Source of the DNA: an uncultured Clostridia bacterium
GTDB taxonomy: Bacteria > Bacillota > Clostridia > TANB77 > CAG-508
Assembly: GCA_944388715.1 (NCBI GenBank)
Contig: CALXJV010000036.1
Coordinates: 1-15,964, forward strand
DNA: 15,964 nucleotides
Reading direction: 5' to 3'
In this document: piece by piece, positions 1 through 6,190 of the stretch
Numbering within the stretch: position 1 is the stretch's first letter
Layout: each line of letters opens with the position of its first letter
Translations under genes and position numbers: made by a program
Notes under the pieces: generated by a model
The model's input: the letters and a program-made list of their open reading frames with translations, nothing else
What the model was told of the DNA's origin: nothing
Databases searched by the model: none

Positions 1-89
1 TTTTTATCTGTCGAAAAATATTTTTTACTGTTCTACACTTCTACTCTCATCTATTATTTATACATCGAAAAAAATTCCAAATAAGTCTA

Positions 90-428
90 CTAGTTTTTGT
101 CATAATAACTTTCAAGAGTAGATATAAATCTAAAAATTAATTTTAATTGCTTTTTATTACATCTATCTAAAAAATTATCTATTAATTTCCTTATTTTCAA
201 ATTATTTGTTTTACTATTTCCATATAAAATATAATCTGTTGTTGAACCCGTCGCGGAACATATTTTATTCAAGGCACTTATGCTAATTTGTAAAGCACCA
301 CGTTCTAATTTTCCAAGATGATTTTCAGAAAGTCCACAACGTTCTGCAAATATTTGTCTTGGCTCATTATAATTTTCTTCTCTTATTTTTCTTATTCTAG
401 CACCGATTTCTATATTATCTAATACCAT
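90..428 (-). CDS. XRE-family helix-turn-helix transcriptional regulator (Tn916 Orf9-like repressor position)
   Basis: 112-aa ORF preceded by a GGAGG Shine-Dalgarno (reverse complement of cctcc at ~436-440). It has an N-terminal HTH_3-type motif (IGARIRKIREE...LSENHLGKLERG...ISALNKICSATGSTTDYILYG). It is divergent from the sigma-like gene. Confidence 0.85.
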   Translation of the reverse strand: MVLDNIEIGARIRKIREENYNEPRQIFAERCGLSENHLGKLERGALQISISALNKICSATGSTTDYILYGNSKTNNLKIRKLIDNFLDRCNKKQLKLIFRFISTLESYYDKN

Positions 429-859
429 TTTTTAAGCCTCCTGTTCCTAATGCTACTATTTTATATTGCTTTTTAAGAATATTACATACCATAATAATGC
501 CAAAATAATAGCATTATTAGGAATTTTGTGTACATAAAAAAGCACATAAATACATAATTAGACAATTTTTGTATTTTCCAAAAGTGTTATCTTAGCAATA
601 TATAATACTAGTTTTCGACAAATTTTACACTTCCATTTTTGTATAATTCTGTTGGGTTTATATACCTATTTAAAAGAACATAAATTGACTGACAAAAGAG
701 GTAGTTTTAAAGCACAAATGATTATGTTTTTTATTACTAAATAGGTATAATAGGCTCATTTTTTATATATTTTTATGGAAGGAGGTTTTTATTTTTGATT
801 TGTGTTCCTTTTAGATAGGAATATTAAACCCAAATTCAAGAAATTTGGGAGGAACACTT

Positions 860-1267
860 ATGGAAAGTAAAAACGATTACAGAGAGGAGAAGTTTGATAG
901 CTACCTTAATAAAACTATTATTTTGTCATCTAGGACATATTTTAAAAAACAAATGAATACAATAAACAAAGAAAGGACTATTGTTGATGACGTAGACTAT
1001 TCAGCTCTATTGCAAGATTTCGTCAATGCTAATAGTTCTTTTTCTAGTTTTGACGATATTGATTCTAAACTAGAATTATCAAGTGCATTAAGTACACTGT
1101 CTGTTATTGAGCAGGCAGTTATTTTTTTGTTATTTCAAGAAGATTTAACACAAAATGAAGTAGCAGAAATTCTAAAAATATATTCAAAAACTGTTAGTAA
1201 AATAAAAAATAGAGCAATGGGAAAGTTAAAAAAGTATTTGAAGGGAGATTTTGAAAATGAAAAATAA
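860..1267 (+). CDS. Small sigma-70 region-4 (ECF-like) DNA-binding protein, Tn916 Orf7-like
   Basis: The C-terminus LSVIEQAVIFLLFQEDLTQNEVAEILKIYSKTVSKIKNRAMGKLKKYL is a typical sigma region 4.2 HTH. The ORF track opens at a TTG at 845, but GGGAGG at 846-851 followed by ATG at 860 (in frame) is the more likely start. Confidence 0.7.
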   Translation: MESKNDYREEKFDSYLNKTIILSSRTYFKKQMNTINKERTIVDDVDYSALLQDFVNANSSFSSFDDIDSKLELSSALSTLSVIEQAVIFLLFQEDLTQNEVAEILKIYSKTVSKIKNRAMGKLKKYLKGDFENEK

Positions 1268-1436
1268 AAGTTTATATGAACTAGGAAAATTAGCACAAAA
1301 AGGAAATGATATAGCAATACTAGAAATTATTGAAAGAAAAAGAAAGATGATTAAAAGATACAGTTTTGAAGATGAAGATCGTTACCAATTTATAATTTTA
1401 AAACTAATAGAAGGTATAAAAAATTATAAATTTTAA
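1251..1436 (+). CDS. Small sigma-region-2-like / conjugative-transposon HTH protein, Tn916 Orf8-like
   Basis: 61-aa ORF overlapping the stop of the preceding gene by 17 nt, which suggests translational coupling. The motif LAQKGNDIAILEIIERKRKMIKRY resembles the N-terminal sigma region-2-like segment of Orf8-type proteins. Its position directly after the Orf7-like gene also fits. Confidence 0.5.
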   Translation: MKMKNKSLYELGKLAQKGNDIAILEIIERKRKMIKRYSFEDEDRYQFIILKLIEGIKNYKF

Positions 1437-1463
1437 AAATTTTTTTAAAATCAGGGGAGAATT

Positions 1464-1491
1464 TTGTCGAGATACTCACTGTATATATAAT
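1464..1491 (+). promoter_or_regulatory. Candidate promoter TTGTCG-16 nt-TATAAT upstream of the 56-aa membrane ORF
   Basis: TTGTCG at 1464-1469 and TATAAT at 1486-1491. The -35-like element is part of the recurrent TTTGTCGA octamer. Confidence 0.4.
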
Positions 1492-1589
1492 GAAGGGCAA
1501 ATTTAAAGGAAGCACTATATTAAAAAAGGACAGGTTGGACTAGCTCTTATCTGTCCTTTATCTAAATTTAAGAAAGGAGAATATAAAAT

Positions 1590-1760
1590 ATGTTTTTTAG
1601 ATTTGTATTGTTAGGAATATCCCTTGTACTATTGCTTTTTATATTTGATATTTTAGTACCCAAATTAAAATTAAAATATCGACTATATAAAGAATTAAAA
1701 GAAAAGCAAAAAAGACAACAAGCATTTAAAAAGAAAATGGAAGAATTAGAGATTAAATAG
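1590..1760 (+). CDS. Small (56 aa) single-pass membrane protein with a lysine-rich tail; not in the supplied ORF track
   Basis: AAAGGAGA SD at 1573-1580, then ATG at 1590 and TAG at 1758-1760. My translation is MFFRFVLLGISLVLLLFIFDILVPKLKLKYRLYKELKEKQKRQQAFKKKMEELEIK, a hydrophobic helix followed by a basic tail. Confidence 0.45.
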   Translation: MFFRFVLLGISLVLLLFIFDILVPKLKLKYRLYKELKEKQKRQQAFKKKMEELEIK

Positions 1761-1833
1761 TTTCTCTAATAGTTCCGTCATATCTAAAAAGTGTCGACAA
1801 AAAATTAACCACTAAATATATAAGGCGGTATTT

Positions 1834-2256
1834 ATGGGAATTTTAAAGGAAAAAATACTTAATCTATTTTATATTGAACATTTAAAAGTAAAAGAAATAG
1901 CAGAAAATACAAATGTATCATCTGCTTATATAACAAAGGTAATAAAAAAAGATACAAGATACAAGAAAGAAAAAGAATTTAGAAAAAATAAATCAAAAGA
2001 AAAAAGAAAAATTGATCAAAACAATTTTGTTAAGAAAAAAAGAGAAATAAAAAAGGTAGAGGATAACTACGAATTTGTCGAAACACAGCACATACAAGCA
2101 GTTATGGAATTGTCAAAGTGTAAAAGATTAAGTGATGAGAATTATAGGAAATGGAATAAAAGTGCTTATAACTATAACCCTTCAAAACATAGGTACGAAT
2201 TTAAAGAAGAATTAGGTCGATCATATGATGTACCTAAATATATAAAAGAAAGGTAA
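1834..2256 (+). CDS. Lysine-rich putative DNA-binding protein with an N-terminal HTH; function unknown
   Basis: The N-terminus LNLFYIEHLKVKEIAENTNVSSAYITKVIKK looks like a sigma-region-4/LuxR-type HTH. The remainder is highly basic. It sits between the Orf8-like gene and xis, the Tn916 orf5 neighbourhood. Confidence 0.5.
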   Translation: MGILKEKILNLFYIEHLKVKEIAENTNVSSAYITKVIKKDTRYKKEKEFRKNKSKEKRKIDQNNFVKKKREIKKVEDNYEFVETQHIQAVMELSKCKRLSDENYRKWNKSAYNYNPSKHRYEFKEELGRSYDVPKYIKER

Positions 2257-2289
2257 ACAAGTAATTTACTTGTTAAAAGGTACAAATTT

Positions 2290-2535
2290 ATGGAAGAAAA
2301 ATTGTTAAAAGTATTTAAACTAGCAGATAAATTAAACAATAAGCAAAGTAAAATATATGCAGAAATTAATTATACTGCTAATGATAAACAAAAGCTAGAA
2401 ATATCTATCAGGAGAAAAAAAGATTTTTCTTATGTTGAAAAATGCGAAATTTGTATTAGAGATAATTCAGAAGAAAAATGGGACAATATTGTTACATTAT
2501 TTGAAACTTTTATTGGAGGTGTTAAAAATGAATAA
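2290..2535 (+). CDS. Hypothetical protein (81 aa)
   Basis: Intact ORF on the same strand as its neighbours. Its stop overlaps the next start (ATGAATAA at 2528-2535). I recognise no motif. Confidence 0.45.
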   Translation: MEEKLLKVFKLADKLNNKQSKIYAEINYTANDKQKLEISIRRKKDFSYVEKCEICIRDNSEEKWDNIVTLFETFIGGVKNE

Positions 2536-2746
2536 GAAAGAATCCGTCGCATATGGCCAGATAGCTTTGGAATCAATGTTACATTCTACATATAAAAAAG
2601 AAATTAACTTACAAAATTTTGCTATTGAAATGAAACAAGCATTTAAACTATATCCAAAAAATATTGTATTGAATATTGCAGAAAGCAAAGTGTTTGCTGA
2701 AAAAAAGTTAGATACAATAGAAACTGGAAGTGATATAAATGAATGA
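2528..2746 (+). CDS. Hypothetical protein (72 aa from ATG 2528)
   Basis: The ORF track opens at 2432. However, GGAGG at ~2516-2520 followed by an in-frame ATG at 2528 gives a start coupled to the upstream stop. The 3' end overlaps the xis start by 8 nt. Confidence 0.45.
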   Translation: MNKKESVAYGQIALESMLHSTYKKEINLQNFAIEMKQAFKLYPKNIVLNIAESKVFAEKKLDTIETGSDINE

Positions 2747-2936
2747 TGAAAAATTAAGTCTTTCTGTAACAGAAGCTGCTGAATTACTTGGCATTGGAAG
2801 AAATTTAATGTTAAAACTCGTCACTGTTCCAGGTTTCCCTGCCATACGTTTTAAAAAAAAGATTTTAATAAATAAAAATAAATTACAACAATGGTTTGAT
2901 GAAAATACCGGCACTTATGGAAATTATAAATATTGA
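2739..2936 (+). CDS. xis: Excisionase-family (MerR/HTH_17-type) DNA-binding protein
   Basis: 65 aa. LSVTEAAELLGIGRNLMLKLVTVPGFPAIRFKKKILINKNKLQQWF is the classic excisionase-family HTH followed by a wing. It lies immediately upstream of the integrase. Confidence 0.8.
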   Translation: MNDEKLSLSVTEAAELLGIGRNLMLKLVTVPGFPAIRFKKKILINKNKLQQWFDENTGTYGNYKY

Positions 2937-2947
2937 TGACTTCAACA

Positions 2948-2976
2948 TTGTTTTTTTAGAGGTATTATTATATAAT
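2948..2976 (+). promoter_or_regulatory. Candidate promoter TTGTTT-17 nt-TATAAT upstream of int
   Basis: TTGTTT at 2948-2953 and TATAAT at 2971-2976. The 13-mer TTTTAAAGCACAA (2980-2992) sits at the predicted transcription start. Confidence 0.35.
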
Positions 2977-3041
2977 AAATTTTAAAGCACAAGCTGTTCT
3001 ATTTATAATTATATCTCTTTAAAACATTGGAGGTATGATAA

Positions 3042-4748
3042 ATGGAAAAAATGATTACAACACCGAAGATGTCAAGAATAGACCTAAATAAAATGTGTTT
3101 TAAAATTCTTTTAAGTATGAAAGGAGATAAATTTAGGGCAAGATCTGAAATATTATCACAAATACCTAATATAAAAAATAATAGACCTGAAGCTACAAGT
3201 ATAAAGTCTTATAATGATGCAGTGCAAAAATTAATCCCAAAAATTCAAGATTCTTTAAAAGATACTGATAAAAAATTGGGAGAAATTTATCAAGATGAAA
3301 GTGGAAATATTATATTTTATGTTCATAATATAGTATATAGCGAGCAAAGAGCGATATTTTATAATAATTCTAATAATGTGTCTACTGATATATCGTCTAT
3401 GTCAAATATGTTTAATATGTTTTTAGCTTTTATGTCTAGCAACAATAATATTCCTCAAAAAAATGTAATTAATCTCTCTACAAATAATTTAGATAAATTA
3501 GAAATATCTAATCAAAATAATATAATTAGCAATAATAAAAAATTATTTAGTGAAATTATTGTTGAATGGTTGAGATACTTAAATAATAGAACAAAATTGG
3601 ATTGCGATAGTGATGAATATTTAAGTCCAACAACATTAGAAAGTTATAATAGAAATTTATGGGCATATGTTTTCCCTTATTTAGAAAAGCATCCAGAATA
3701 TAATGATATTTCAATTTTTTCTTCTAGTGTCATTGATGACATTTTTAAAGGAATAAAATGCTTAGATACTAAAAGGGTTTTACTTGTTTCTTTTAAATTG
3801 ATTTTTGAATATGCTAAGAAACATAACTATATAAGTGTTAATACTATATCTGATAAAAAATTAAAGAAAAATAGCAAAAATAGAAAATCAAAAGCAGATT
3901 ATGAATTTATAGAAGAAGATTGTAGAGCACTTTGGATTGACTATATGATAAAAGACTTTCAAATTAAAGAAAAAATTTATAATGATGCTCCTTTAGCATT
4001 CTTATGTACGTTACTGCATGGTAATAGACCAGAAGAAACTTGTGGTACAAAATGGAAAGATTTTGATTTTGAAAAAAATACTTATCATATTCAAAATGCT
4101 TATAAGAAAATTCCTATCTATGATGAAATAACAATGAAAAGAATTGGTTGGGATAAAGGTGATGGACCTTTGAAAACTCCGGAAAGTAATAGAATACTAT
4201 CATTAGATTTACTATTTAAAGAATTATTACTTGAACATAGAGAAAATCAAAAGAAATATTTTAAAAAAATCGGAAAGAAATGGTCTGATGATGAATATGT
4301 TTTTAGAAACCGCTATAATGAGCCATATACTCCTGATATACTTTCAAAGAATTTTACTAAATTTGTTAAAAGACATAAAGATTTATCTCATATAGTTATT
4401 TATTCTTTAAGACATAGTTTTGCTACACATTGTAAAAATAACGGTATGTCAGCCGAAGTTTTGGCAAGAATTATGGGACATACAGAATATGAAACAACAC
4501 AAAGATATTATATACATATTTCAAGTAAACAAAAGAAAGAAGAATTAGAAAAAGTACAAAAACAAGATCTTAACAAATATTTAGGTAAAGATAATAGTGA
4601 ACTAGTACATCTTCAAAACAAAGTTTCAAATTTACAAGAATTACAACAAGATGATATTATAAATTATGTACAATTAGATAATAATACATTATCAACTTTA
4701 ACAACAATACTTACAAAAATTATTCAAAAGCAAAGAGTTGTTGCCTGA
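3042..4748 (+). CDS. int: Tyrosine recombinase / phage-type integrase (568 aa; long N-terminal region and C-terminal tail)
   Basis: GGAGG SD at ~3029-3033. The catalytic-domain motifs are HGNRPEE (Arg I), SLRHSFATH (Arg II/His), IMGHTEYETTQRYYIH (His and nucleophilic Tyr). A SAM-like core-binding segment starts around FSEIIVEWLRYL. Confidence 0.9.
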   Translation: MEKMITTPKMSRIDLNKMCFKILLSMKGDKFRARSEILSQIPNIKNNRPEATSIKSYNDAVQKLIPKIQDSLKDTDKKLGEIYQDESGNIIFYVHNIVYSEQRAIFYNNSNNVSTDISSMSNMFNMFLAFMSSNNNIPQKNVINLSTNNLDKLEISNQNNIISNNKKLFSEIIVEWLRYLNNRTKLDCDSDEYLSPTTLESYNRNLWAYVFPYLEKHPEYNDISIFSSSVIDDIFKGIKCLDTKRVLLVSFKLIFEYAKKHNYISVNTISDKKLKKNSKNRKSKADYEFIEEDCRALWIDYMIKDFQIKEKIYNDAPLAFLCTLLHGNRPEETCGTKWKDFDFEKNTYHIQNAYKKIPIYDEITMKRIGWDKGDGPLKTPESNRILSLDLLFKELLLEHRENQKKYFKKIGKKWSDDEYVFRNRYNEPYTPDILSKNFTKFVKRHKDLSHIVIYSLRHSFATHCKNNGMSAEVLARIMGHTEYETTQRYYIHISSKQKKEELEKVQKQDLNKYLGKDNSELVHLQNKVSNLQELQQDDIINYVQLDNNTLSTLTTILTKIIQKQRVVA

Positions 4749-4788
4749 AAAATATTTCATTTGCTTTTTATTAAGAGCATTATTTTTT

Positions 4789-4823
4789 GGGGACTATGTG
4801 GGGACTTTTTGGGGACTTGTGGG
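4789..4823 (+). repeat. Array A: three perfect GGGGACT motifs at exact 11-bp phasing, plus a degenerate GGG run
   Basis: GGGGACT at 4789, 4800 and 4811; GGG at 4821-4823. The units are GGGGACTATGT, GGGGACTTTTT and GGGGACTTGTG. Confidence 0.9.
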
Positions 4824-4919
4824 TCGCTCGGAGAAATTTATAAATTATCACAAAGCCAGTAAATATGTCTATTCCGTAGATTATTAAATTTTCTACTTTT
4901 CATAATTTAATGATTTTGT

Positions 4920-4963
4920 GGGGACTTTCTGGGGACTTTTTGGGGACTACGTGGGGACTAGAT
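4920..4963 (+). repeat. Array B: four perfect GGGGACT motifs at exact 11-bp phasing
   Basis: GGGGACT at 4920, 4931, 4942 and 4953. The units are GGGGACTTTCT, GGGGACTTTTT, GGGGACTACGT and GGGGACTAGAT. It has the same orientation as array A and is separated from it by ~95 bp of AT-rich DNA. Confidence 0.9.
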
Positions 4964-5018
4964 GAAAAAATGAATTAAAATTAGTCTTAAAAAATGATTA
5001 TTTTTTGATTTTGGGCAT

Positions 5019-5060
5019 AAAAAAAAGCCAATAATCAAGCCCTTCGCAAGACTAATGACC
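5019..5060 (-). terminator. Rho-independent terminator of the tRNA operon
   Basis: On the minus strand, directly after the tRNA-Thr CCA, there is an imperfect ~14-bp stem (GGUCAUUAGUCUUGC...GGGCUUGAUUAUUGGC). A run of eight U follows (the A-run at 5019-5026 on the plus strand). Confidence 0.55.
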
Positions 5061-5063
5061 TTG

Positions 5064-5140
5064 TGGAGCCACTTATCCGATTCGAACGGATGACCCTCGC
5101 ATTACAAGTGCGATGCTCTGGCCAGCTGAGCTAAAGTGGC
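5064..5140 (-). tRNA. tRNA-Thr (anticodon UGU), CCA encoded
   Basis: The reverse complement is GCCACTTTAGCTCAGCTGGCCAGAGCATCGCACTTGTAATGCGAGGGTCATCCGTTCGAATCGGATAAGTGGCTCCA. It folds as a cloverleaf with a 7-bp acceptor stem, anticodon stem TCGCA/TGCGA, loop CTTGTAA and T-loop TTCGAAT. Confidence 0.9.
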
Positions 5141-5637: not shown

Positions 5638-5823
5638 CTAAGCATTTAATTTTTCTACAACTTCTTCTACATCTATTCCATGTACATCACAAGCTTCTTC
5701 TAAAGTTTCCATTTGAGATGCAGGACATCCTATGCAGTGCATTCCAACATTTAATAAAATCTCTGCTTTTTCTGGAGCTTTTTCTAATATTTCTCCAATT
5801 CTTGTATCTTTATCAAATTTCAT
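5638..5823 (-). CDS. DUF1858-type small redox disulfide protein (hybrid-cluster-protein-associated family)
   Basis: 61 aa with an AAGGAGG SD. The sequence IGEILEKAPEKAEILLNVGMHCIGCPASQMETLEEACDVHGIDVEEVVEKLN contains the characteristic H-C-x-G-C-P motif of this family. Confidence 0.8.
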   Translation of the reverse strand: MKFDKDTRIGEILEKAPEKAEILLNVGMHCIGCPASQMETLEEACDVHGIDVEEVVEKLNA

Positions 5824-5925
5824 AAATATTCCTCCTTAAAAAATTATTTGTTTTAAATTAACAAAAATTTCAGTCGTTAAAATTGACTATTTTTATAAAT
5901 TTTATCACAAATTTTCAAAAAAGTA

Positions 5926-5954
5926 TAGACAAATGCAAAAAAATATTGTATTAT
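5926..5954 (+). promoter_or_regulatory. Candidate promoter TAGACA-17 nt-TATTAT for the T4SS-like block
   Basis: TAGACA at 5926-5931 and TATTAT at 5949-5954, with TG immediately upstream. This leaves a ~170-nt leader before the SD at 6126-6133. Confidence 0.35.
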
Positions 5955-6190
5955 GGTAAAAATTGTAAGGTGGTGATGATATTTTTACACTTGTAGATTT
6001 ATTTTTTATATCTCTTATTATTAATCTTTTCATCAGTTTATATTCAATTTACACTTTTATCGAGATAAAAATTTTTCATAATCAACAAGGTTCCAAATTA
6101 AAAATCAAGCAAAAATACACTGAAAAAGGAGGTTCTTAGTTTATCAAAAAGTTTTTTACAATAATATTATTTACATTCATACTTATTTTT

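Follow-up and report, generated by a model that had tools for sequence, protein, structure and literature searches.

Phased TGGGGACTW repeats beside int as probable arm-type recombination sites of a tRNA-Thr-targeting integrative element from uncultured Clostridia

The attachment (att) site attP of phage lambda carries short arm sites, P'1-P'3 in tandem together with P1 and P2, that are bound by the N-terminal domain of the integrase Int, whilst its excisionase Xis binds X1-X1.5-X2; sites for such directionality factors are classically confined to one arm. In Tn916, the N-terminal domain of Int binds subterminal short direct repeats in both arms. Tn1549 Int belongs to the arm-binding IntTn916 subgroup (PMC8138268), and the attP of the integrative and conjugative element (ICE) ICEMlSymR7A needs five P/arm-type IntS motifs, TGKTGGTATC (PMC11963761). 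Here, phased GGGGACT repeats are described that lie between an integrase gene (int) and a tRNA gene in a 15,964-bp stretch of DNA from an uncultured Clostridia bacterium (contig CALXJV010000036.1; the whole stretch is referred to as the window), at one end of an element that is integrative, probably conjugative, and occupies the 3' half of tRNA-Thr(UGU). That the repeats serve as accessory recombination sites of the att arms, whether recognized by Int or by Xis, is close to certain; that they are the accessory arm-type sites of the int-proximal arm, read by the N-terminal domain of Int, is given a probability of roughly 60% on the basis of comparative sequence analysis. Integrase arm-type or Xis sites had been one of several options raised in a first-pass annotation of the window, and it is this option that is supported: the repeats are element-borne, absent at empty sites, kept with int, and found on both arms in relatives.

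The window contains exactly seven copies of GGGGACT, all on the plus strand, and none elsewhere on either strand; dinucleotide-preserving shuffles (n=200) gave a mean of 0.34 copies and a maximum of 3, with seven being reached in 0/200. The copies start at 4789, 4800 and 4811 (array A) and at 4920, 4931, 4942 and 4953 (array B), in the 11-bp steps that had been claimed for them, and the two arrays are mutually out of register, with 109 bp separating 4811 from 4920. A further 'GGG at 4821' that had been counted with array A is indeed present (GGGTCGC, 4821-4827), but it follows the preceding copy by 10 nt rather than 11 and is a poor match to the motif. The features of this end of the element are as follows.

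2739-2936, plus strand: xis, encoding a 65-aa excisionase-type helix-turn-helix (HTH) protein, the candidate recombination directionality factor (Pfam HTH_17, E 4.8e-7)
3042-4748, plus strand: int, encoding a 568-aa tyrosine recombinase (PF00589, E 4e-18, match at residues 319-493)
4789-4817, plus strand: array A, three perfect TGGGGACT sites at 11-bp spacing; the distal near-arm set
4821-4833, plus strand: degenerate fourth copy and G+C-rich box GGGTCGCTCGGAG, which closes array A (read directly)
4834-4919, no strand: AT-rich spacer between arrays A and B
4920-4959, plus strand: array B, four perfect TGGGGACT sites at 11-bp spacing; the conserved near-arm cluster
4960-5016, no strand: near-arm linker with roughly helically phased A/T tracts, from array B to the att repeat
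5017-5109, no strand: element copy of the att identity segment, comprising the ~47 nt that normally follow tRNA-Thr and the 3' 46 nt of the tRNA, as far as its anticodon loop
5064-5140, minus strand: tRNA-Thr(UGU), the integration target (ARAGORN and empty-site comparison)

The extent of a single site was defined from a logo pooled from 42 distinct sites in the window and its relatives. The base 5' of GGGGACT is T in 42/42 sites and the base 3' of it is A or T in 40/42, whilst the middle three spacer bases between sites are unconstrained. The selected unit is therefore the 9-bp TGGGGACTW, occurring once per helical turn with an 11-bp period, and is larger than the 7-mer originally noted. The sites are under base-specific constraint, T-GGGG-A-C-T-W being near-invariant and the three spacer bases free.

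Relatives were identified by scanning one genome per species for the pattern GGGGACT-N4-GGGGACT-N4-GGGGACT, together with look-ups of Int homologues. All clades in which Int is at least 44% identical proved to have an array immediately 3' of int and tRNA-Thr after it, as listed here.

L037, Int 90% identical: 3 near-arm copies
L078, Int 82% identical: 6 contiguous near-arm copies
L068, Int 81% identical: 3 + 3 near-arm sites, with a spacer homologous to that of the window
L101, int truncated: 4 near-arm copies
L125, Int 69% identical: GGGGAAT, GGGGAAT, GGGGACT, GGGGACC
L022, L055 and L079, Int 52-53% identical: 3 near-arm copies each
L119, Int 44% identical: GGGGATT, GGGGACT, GGGGACT

In all of these, the start of the core-nearest copy is separated from the tRNA 3' end by 91-118 nt and from the anticodon loop by ~150 nt; in the window, the corresponding distances for the proximal edge of array B are 105 nt and ~145-150 nt. 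Judged by this position, array B is the window's equivalent of the conserved near-arm cluster, which has 3-6 copies in relatives. The motif is thus kept beside int, which itself adjoins tRNA-Thr in every relative examined, across 44-100% Int identity, the conservation with the integrase that is looked for in arm sites. Array A was found only in the window lineage, in L068 and, in decayed form, in the left element of L142, and is absent in L078, L037, L101, L125, L022, L055 and L119; array A and the spacer that follows it are, by this distribution, a lineage-specific addition. Over its 52-nt unit array A shares 81% identity with the beginning of array B, and a duplication of ~131 bp is the suggested origin. 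A G+C-rich box ends array A in all three lineages that have one (GGGTCGCTCGGAG in the window, GGTCGCCCCGGCT in L068), and the GTCGC box is found after array A in both L068 and L142. The spacers of L068 and L142 can by eye be partly aligned with that of the window, from which they have clearly diverged, and positions 4852-4862 of the window spacer repeat, in degenerate form, the 'AAAGCCAATAA' with which the att repeat begins.

This distribution bears on two further proposals for the arrays. It had been suggested that both arrays might fold into G-quadruplexes, either in the displaced plus strand or in the RNA of the int 3' untranslated region. Array B does fit G(3+)N(1-7) x4 literally, as GGGG-N7 repeated four times, and as RNA it is predicted by ViennaRNA with a quadruplex term to fold at -21.0 versus -8.3 kcal/mol; no quadruplex is predicted for array A by the same program, and the pattern is not conserved, as the conserved array has only three G-runs in 6/11 lineages (L037, L022, L055/L079, L119, L089 and L068) and the far arm has two. 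In addition, the invariant positions include the flanking T and the A-C-T, where the loops of a quadruplex should vary freely, and an exact 11-bp period would be meaningless for such a structure. A function of the arrays as quadruplexes is hence very improbable. Alternatively, the arrays could form an operator for Int, Xis or the XRE or sigma-like regulators of the element, acting on int read-through, on a promoter in the spacer or at the joint of the excised circle. There is a precedent in ICEMlSymR7A, where attP-bound IntS represses intS (PMC11963761); no terminator is predicted between int and the arrays, and a promoter-like TAGACA-16-TGtGATAAT is found between them on the minus strand (4871-4844), directed antisense towards int. 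However, promoter matches occur at chance level (2 found versus 2.2 expected), the hexamers are not conserved in L068, and most relatives have a single array and no spacer. Regulation would at best be a secondary role of recombination sites, and as the primary function of the arrays it is improbable.

The relationship of the repeats to the boundary of the element was established by comparing occupied and empty sites. Beyond tRNA-Thr lie tRNA-Glu and then tRNA-Lys, on the minus strand, and the 3' end of tRNA-Thr faces int. Metagenome contigs L001-L009, in which Int is the same protein, match the window at 100% identity throughout their overlap with 78-5124, the whole of this block being spanned by L001, L003 and L004 and part of it by L006 and L007. 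Past the tRNAs, L003 and L006 drop to 70-74% identity with the window, and the first polymorphism between contigs is at 5125; the break from 100% to ~70% identity at the tRNA therefore marks a mobile-element boundary. Empty sites (L140, L141 and L143) were found through the backbone DUF1858 gene (5638-5823), the product of which is identical in all of them, and they share the window's synteny of gyrA, DnaC-like, DnaD-like, VirD4-like and DUF1858 genes and tRNA. In these three contigs tRNA-Thr is present, with neither int nor GGGGACT beside it. The repeats are element-borne and are not part of the unoccupied attB.

The same comparison indicates where recombination would take place. The T-stem of the window tRNA-Thr is ATCCG/CGGAT (5075-5091), as compared with CCCAG/CTGGG in the empty sites L140, L141 and L143; both versions are self-complementary, owing to compensatory changes, and the window and empty-site tRNAs are identical from 5093 on. 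The window tRNA-Thr is thus chimeric, its 3' part having been supplied by the element and its 5' part by the chromosome. At far junctions, the displaced native fragment ends '...CATTACAAGT', one base past the anticodon loop (5102-5108). Taken together with the T-stem difference, this end leads to a predicted crossover at ~5093-5109, at the anticodon loop. The att identity segment, which makes up a flanking att repeat of ~93 nt, recurs as the displaced fragment at the far junction in L037, L101, L142 and L089. In the anticodon-centred attP class of tRNA integration, a regenerated tRNA gene and a displaced fragment mark the ends of the island (PMC4383910), and the predicted crossover of this element fits that class.

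The empty sites also bear on two related readings of the arrays around an AT-rich unwinding region: iterons of an origin, as proposed in the first-pass annotation, or a parC-like centromere, in either case for use by the excised element. With their 11-bp direct repeats around a stretch of ~100 bp that is AT-rich, the two arrays resemble plasmid R1 parC and iteron origins, and DnaD-like and DnaC-like genes, the former of which had been linked to the element, are encoded within the window. These genes nevertheless lie outside the element: the same synteny is seen in the empty L140 and L141, and they are ~70% identical between strains that share the element. Furthermore, the two-array layout is lineage-specific, most relatives having one array and lacking both array A and the AT-rich spacer; the small remnants L089, L101 and L142 have no replication genes and still carry the repeats; and the repeats are held at fixed distances on both sides of the crossover. 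An origin or centromere is scarcely credible on these grounds, and neither this option nor the linkage of the DnaD-like and DnaC-like genes to the element is borne out.

If the repeats are recombination sites, the same motif is expected at the other end of the element, a check proposed in the first-pass annotation, and it was found at the far junctions of four relatives, all of them remnant or tandem arrangements. A far-arm pair, GGGGATTttgtGGGGACT, is located at +151/+162 past the displaced tRNA-Thr fragment in L037, L101 and L142, and a pair GGGTAATaaatGGGGACT at +164/+175 in L089; at 4/4 far junctions the pair is oriented as the near-arm arrays are. When L037 is compared with L101 and L142, conservation ends ~13 nt after the far-arm pair. 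On both arms, roughly phased A/T tracts, read directly, separate the sites from the core; in the window linker, runs of A or T are found at ~4965, 4976, 4988, 5000, 5008 and 5018, and this DNA may be intrinsically bent. The minimal layout of the family is thus a tandem cluster of three sites on the int side and a pair on the far side, each ~150 bp from the crossover. In the L142 tandem, the int end of one element, with decayed A and B arrays, abuts through a single att repeat the far arm of the next element, a junction that has the organization expected of attP: near-arm sites, core and far-arm pair.

The far end of the window's own element was sought in several ways. Within 10-15 kb to the left (L001, L002 and L010) there is no att direct repeat and no second GGGGACT cluster, and the intact element is therefore larger than the searched stretch; its other end is more than 21 kb away on that side. 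When metagenomes were scanned for the far-arm pattern TTTTTGGGGATTN4GGGGACTT, all seven matches proved to be unrelated. A leftward walk through a Gp3-like protein led to a 100%-identity cluster representative, P0090, that is recorded only on a 1.8-kb contig, and a 71% relative, L136, carries SSB, PcfJ and ArdC-N genes and no element end. Further in, relatives carry SSB, PcfJ, ArdC-N and DUF3846 genes, with which a conjugative element fits; the ICE label given to the element in the first-pass annotation is reasonable on the strength of these genes, although the intact element could not be followed to its other end.

From these arrangements a model can be proposed in which the 568-aa Int is heterobivalent. 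Its core-binding and catalytic domains would act at the anticodon-loop crossover (~5093-5109), and its N-terminal domain, carried on a long flexible linker, would dock on the 9-bp TGGGGACTW sites. These would be provided on the int side by the tandem cluster ~150 bp from the crossover, namely array B with array A as a lineage-specific extra, and on the far arm by the phased pair at ~150 bp. The A/T-tract arm DNA, Xis and host bending proteins would fold the arms back so that Int protomers could bridge arm and core, and this bridging would set the direction of the reaction, integration versus excision. The copy number of the sites (3-8) would probably only tune efficiency.

Such a layout has much in common with that of lambda. 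In both cases short sites distinct from the core are present on the two arms, with three in the int-proximal arm and two in the other, attB has none of the sites, all of which belong to the element, and a xis gene lies beside int. The differences are that the motif TGGGGACTW is unrelated to that of lambda, that the sites lie further out, at ~150 bp on both sides, that copies expand to 6-8, that the far-arm pair is contiguous, that the target is a tRNA anticodon loop, and that the N-terminal domain of Int is not detectably homologous to that of lambda Int. The resemblance to Tn916 and Tn1549 lies in the order of genes at the end of the element (an XRE gene on the opposite strand, then sigma-like, small open reading frames, Xis and Int), in a catalytic domain that is closest to that of Tn1549 Int, and in subterminal short direct repeats in both arms. 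Unlike Tn916, which uses AT-rich targets and coupling sequences and makes no tRNA duplication, the element described here is specific to tRNA-Thr and flanked by a ~93-nt repeat, and the N-terminal region of its 568-aa Int matches no model of the Tn916 Int DNA-binding domain. ICEMlSymR7A is likewise a tRNA-gene ICE with several copies of a short arm motif on both sides of the core and a winged-helix directionality factor; it differs in its integrase subgroup and motif, its sites are dispersed where those here are strictly phased and in tandem, and the gene for its directionality factor is not beside int.

The protein that would read the sites has been examined in its own right. Int consists of a predicted N-terminal domain (residues ~15-100), a variable linker rich in N and S (~105-170), the core-binding and catalytic domains and a C-terminal tail, and its closest solved structures are those of Tn1549 Int (6EN0/6EMZ, E 1.5e-6). 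The family comprises 89 clusters of 27-100% identity, 87 of which are full-length at an identity of at least 34%, and across it the first ~100 residues are conserved and are followed by a variable low-complexity linker. AlphaFold2 applied to residues 1-110 gave a confident model for 17-96 (mean predicted local distance difference test score, pLDDT, 83.5) with three strands, a helix and a hairpin; three strands followed by a helix is the order of secondary structure in arm-binding domains (PMC8138268). Both the PF00589 domain and the XRE, sigma-like, Xis and Int gene order agree with a module of the IntTn916 subgroup, whilst low-specificity insertion of the Tn916 type, with coupling sequences and no target duplication, was not found. 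As a separate observation, the catalytic tyrosine of Int is followed by a tail of ~65 residues (4542-4748 in the window, residues ~500-568), rich in heptad-like L/Q/N repeats, which is kept in clades of at least 44% identity and is shorter in a clade of 36% identity.

Several points weigh against recognition of the repeats by this domain. The N-domain has no match in Pfam or among PDB sequences, Foldseek gave nothing significant in PDB or BFVD, and an hhalign profile comparison with the canonical integrase N-terminus gave no match; its candidacy as an arm-binding domain is argued from the order of its secondary structure in the model and from its position, and nothing beyond these. Seven to eight sites on one arm are more than an Int tetramer occupies at once, and strictly periodic head-to-tail repeats are bound also by winged-helix proteins of the Xis/BldC type. 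The far arm was seen in remnant or tandem relatives only (L037, L101, L142 and L089), and not in the window's intact element. Lastly, a sister clade (L122-L124), in which Int is 36% identical and 515 aa long, has a homologous Int N-domain (33% identical) and yet is without a near-arm array. In this clade int lies ~50 nt from tRNA-Lys(CTT), there is no GGGGACT array on the int-proximal arm, in the 49 nt between int and the tRNA, and the XRE, sigma-like, HTH_16, Xis and Int module (L122 160-5950) is accompanied by a chloramphenicol acetyltransferase gene.

It is a real, if clearly lesser, possibility that the repeats are instead sites for Xis, the 65-aa HTH_17 winged-helix protein, which would polymerize on them head to tail with one subunit per turn, bend the arm and drive excision, the arm sites of Int then being elsewhere or overlapping. 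The gene for this protein, of the HTH_17/Tn916-Xis type, lies directly upstream of int, as it lies just upstream in all relatives; the match of the protein to Tn916-Xis is itself sub-threshold (E 7.5e-4, 20.1 bits, Pfam cutoff 22.9 bits). Proteins of this kind typically bind repeats of exactly 11 bp placed head to tail in runs of 3-6, and filaments of BldC and RdfS take up one DNA turn per subunit (PMC11963761). A variable copy number would also suit a filament better than a tetramer, and among elements that keep an identical motif Xis is 67-92% conserved, as against 33-86% for the Int N-domain. The arrays thus share with those of Xis, BldC and RdfS the one-turn direct repeats in runs of at least three, repeated head to tail, and an HTH_17 protein encoded beside int; they differ in that the latter arrays are found on one arm or at promoters and usually have a weak consensus, whereas the 9-bp unit here is near-invariant and is found on both arms. 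Xis arrays would be expected on one arm only, between the Int arm sites and the core; the repeats here occupy both arms at similar, mirror-image distances from the core, and no other repeated motif that could provide Int arm sites was seen in either arm. The sister clades point the same way. In the L119 clade, where arrays are present, Xis is 70% and the Int N-domain 46% identical, and in the L122 clade, where the near-arm arrays are lacking and the tRNA target is a different one, Xis is still 67% identical and the Int N-domain 33%; judged from these two clades, the arrays appear to track Int rather than Xis. For these reasons we infer that the N-domain of Int, rather than Xis, is the reader.

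A bolder version of recognition by Int can be put forward. The first ~100 residues of Int, with their three strands, helix and hairpin and no Pfam or structural match, might be a DNA-binding module unrelated to known arm-binding domains, which would read a G-rich 9-mer in a genome of 25% G+C; expansion and duplication of the near-arm sites from 3 to 8 copies would then amount to a tunable device for excision and integration, and versions with four G-runs could possibly fold as a quadruplex on the displaced strand. Taken as a whole this proposal is doubtful.

Arrays of GGGGACT are not confined to the relatives of this element. The genome scan gave 92 matches to the triple pattern, and ~70/99 genome and viral loci are above 45% G+C; among the loci listed, the spacers of L053, L106, L113, L114, L117 and L118 are identical, so that these arrays amount to plain tandem repeats of 11 bp. 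The high-G+C matches were accordingly set aside as relatives and are attributed to ascertainment by the search. GGGGACT repeated three to four times at 11-bp spacing is also found in att-like settings in Ruminiclostridium (L061, 2480-2530), Desulfosporosinus (L103, 7194-7260), a Bacillota metagenome-assembled genome (L110, reverse strand, 4394-4422), Tissierella (L027, 2366-2420) and a member of the Oscillospiraceae (L090, 3817-3865). In L061, L110 and L103/L116 the array comes after the gene of a distant tyrosine recombinase (24-28% identity in the catalytic domain), which is intact in the first two and fragmented in L103/L116; L027 has a recombinase fragment on the opposite strand, just downstream of the array, and L090 has no adjacent int. 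An inverted copy follows the array in L061, L103, L116 and L027 and none does in L110, and a 3' tRNA-like fragment with a T-arm and CCA end was recognized by eye after the array in L061, L103 and L116, where ARAGORN calls none. The recombinases of L061 and L110 have conventional-looking N-termini that cannot be aligned with that of the Int described here, and a shared reader protein was considered for these distant arrays and is not argued for here, chance sharing of a 7-mer by unrelated arm motifs being possible among 185,000 genomes. The use made of these loci is limited to showing that an att layout with phased triplets just 3' of int is common. The att sequence of a pneumococcal prophage contains GGGGAATtggcGGGGACT (PMC8637289), and GGGGACT may be a widely used arm site of Firmicutes, or this impression may be due to ascertainment. 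Searches of phage and plasmid collections by blastn gave no match to 4700-5060, and tblastn of Int gave catalytic-domain matches only, at no more than 31% identity.

Small islands that retain the arm sites are a recurrent feature of the family. In L089 (3563-6320), L101, L037 and L142 (1-640 and 2000-2330 of the reverse strand), islands of 1.9-5.4 kb that have a lost or truncated int are bounded by the tRNA-Thr att repeat, and near-arm and far-arm sites alike have been kept in them. By their organization these remnants look like cis-mobilizable elements that have accreted at one tRNA gene, and they resemble the cis-mobilizable remnants and tandem accretions represented by ICESt1/ICESt3 and by the tandem islands of Islander (PMC4383910) in being int-less or int-truncated islands with arm sites.

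The mechanism proposed for the repeats is conceptually standard for heterobivalent tyrosine integrases, and as a feature of an ordinary kind they are of modest interest in themselves. What is gained is a definition of the att-site architecture of a family of integrative elements that had not been described before and is common in human and rabbit metagenomes among uncultured gut Clostridia of low G+C content: a tRNA-Thr anticodon-loop target, a flanking repeat of ~93 nt, the arm motif TGGGGACTW and a geometry of ~150 bp on each side. Motif and geometry together provide a signature by which elements and int-less remnants can be delimited in metagenomes, where contigs often break at this point, and the two arms, xis and int make up a minimal parts list for a mini-element or integration vector. 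The chloramphenicol acetyltransferase of the tRNA-Lys clade implies that the wider Int family moves resistance cargo.

The remaining genes of the window fall on both sides of the element boundary. Upstream of xis, the element has a Tn916-like module with two further regulatory genes.

90-428, opposite strand to int: XRE repressor-type gene
845-1267: gene for a sigma-70 region-4 protein, with several small open reading frames after it

The block of 100% identity ends at ~78 (window 1-78; L001 6960-7040), just past the XRE stop codon, and two different left contexts are seen there, one shared by the window and L005 and the other by L001, L003 and L004. The latter consists of a 72-aa open reading frame and genes for a response regulator with a Spo0A_C domain and a 747-aa Glug-domain protein. 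This suggests that position ~78 is a point of cargo exchange, like the accessory region of the Tn916 family. In one variant of the element the cargo is interrupted by an IS21-family insertion with an rve transposase and an IstB ATPase (L002 286-2332; L012 9746-11792). To the right of the tRNAs, the genes beside gyrA (5638-12114) encode DUF1858, VirD4/TraG-like coupling, small type IV secretion system pilin-like membrane, DnaD-like and DnaC/IstB-like proteins; they are outside the element, because the same synteny occurs at empty sites and because their identity is only ~70% between strains whose copies of the element do not differ at all. Taken together they resemble a resident conjugation/replication module that may be old or domesticated. 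At the right edge, a second XRE-type gene (15626-15964) is a paralogue of the XRE gene of the element (90-428), with a similar N-terminal HTH and a 'DYILYGN' motif, and may mark another element beyond the window.

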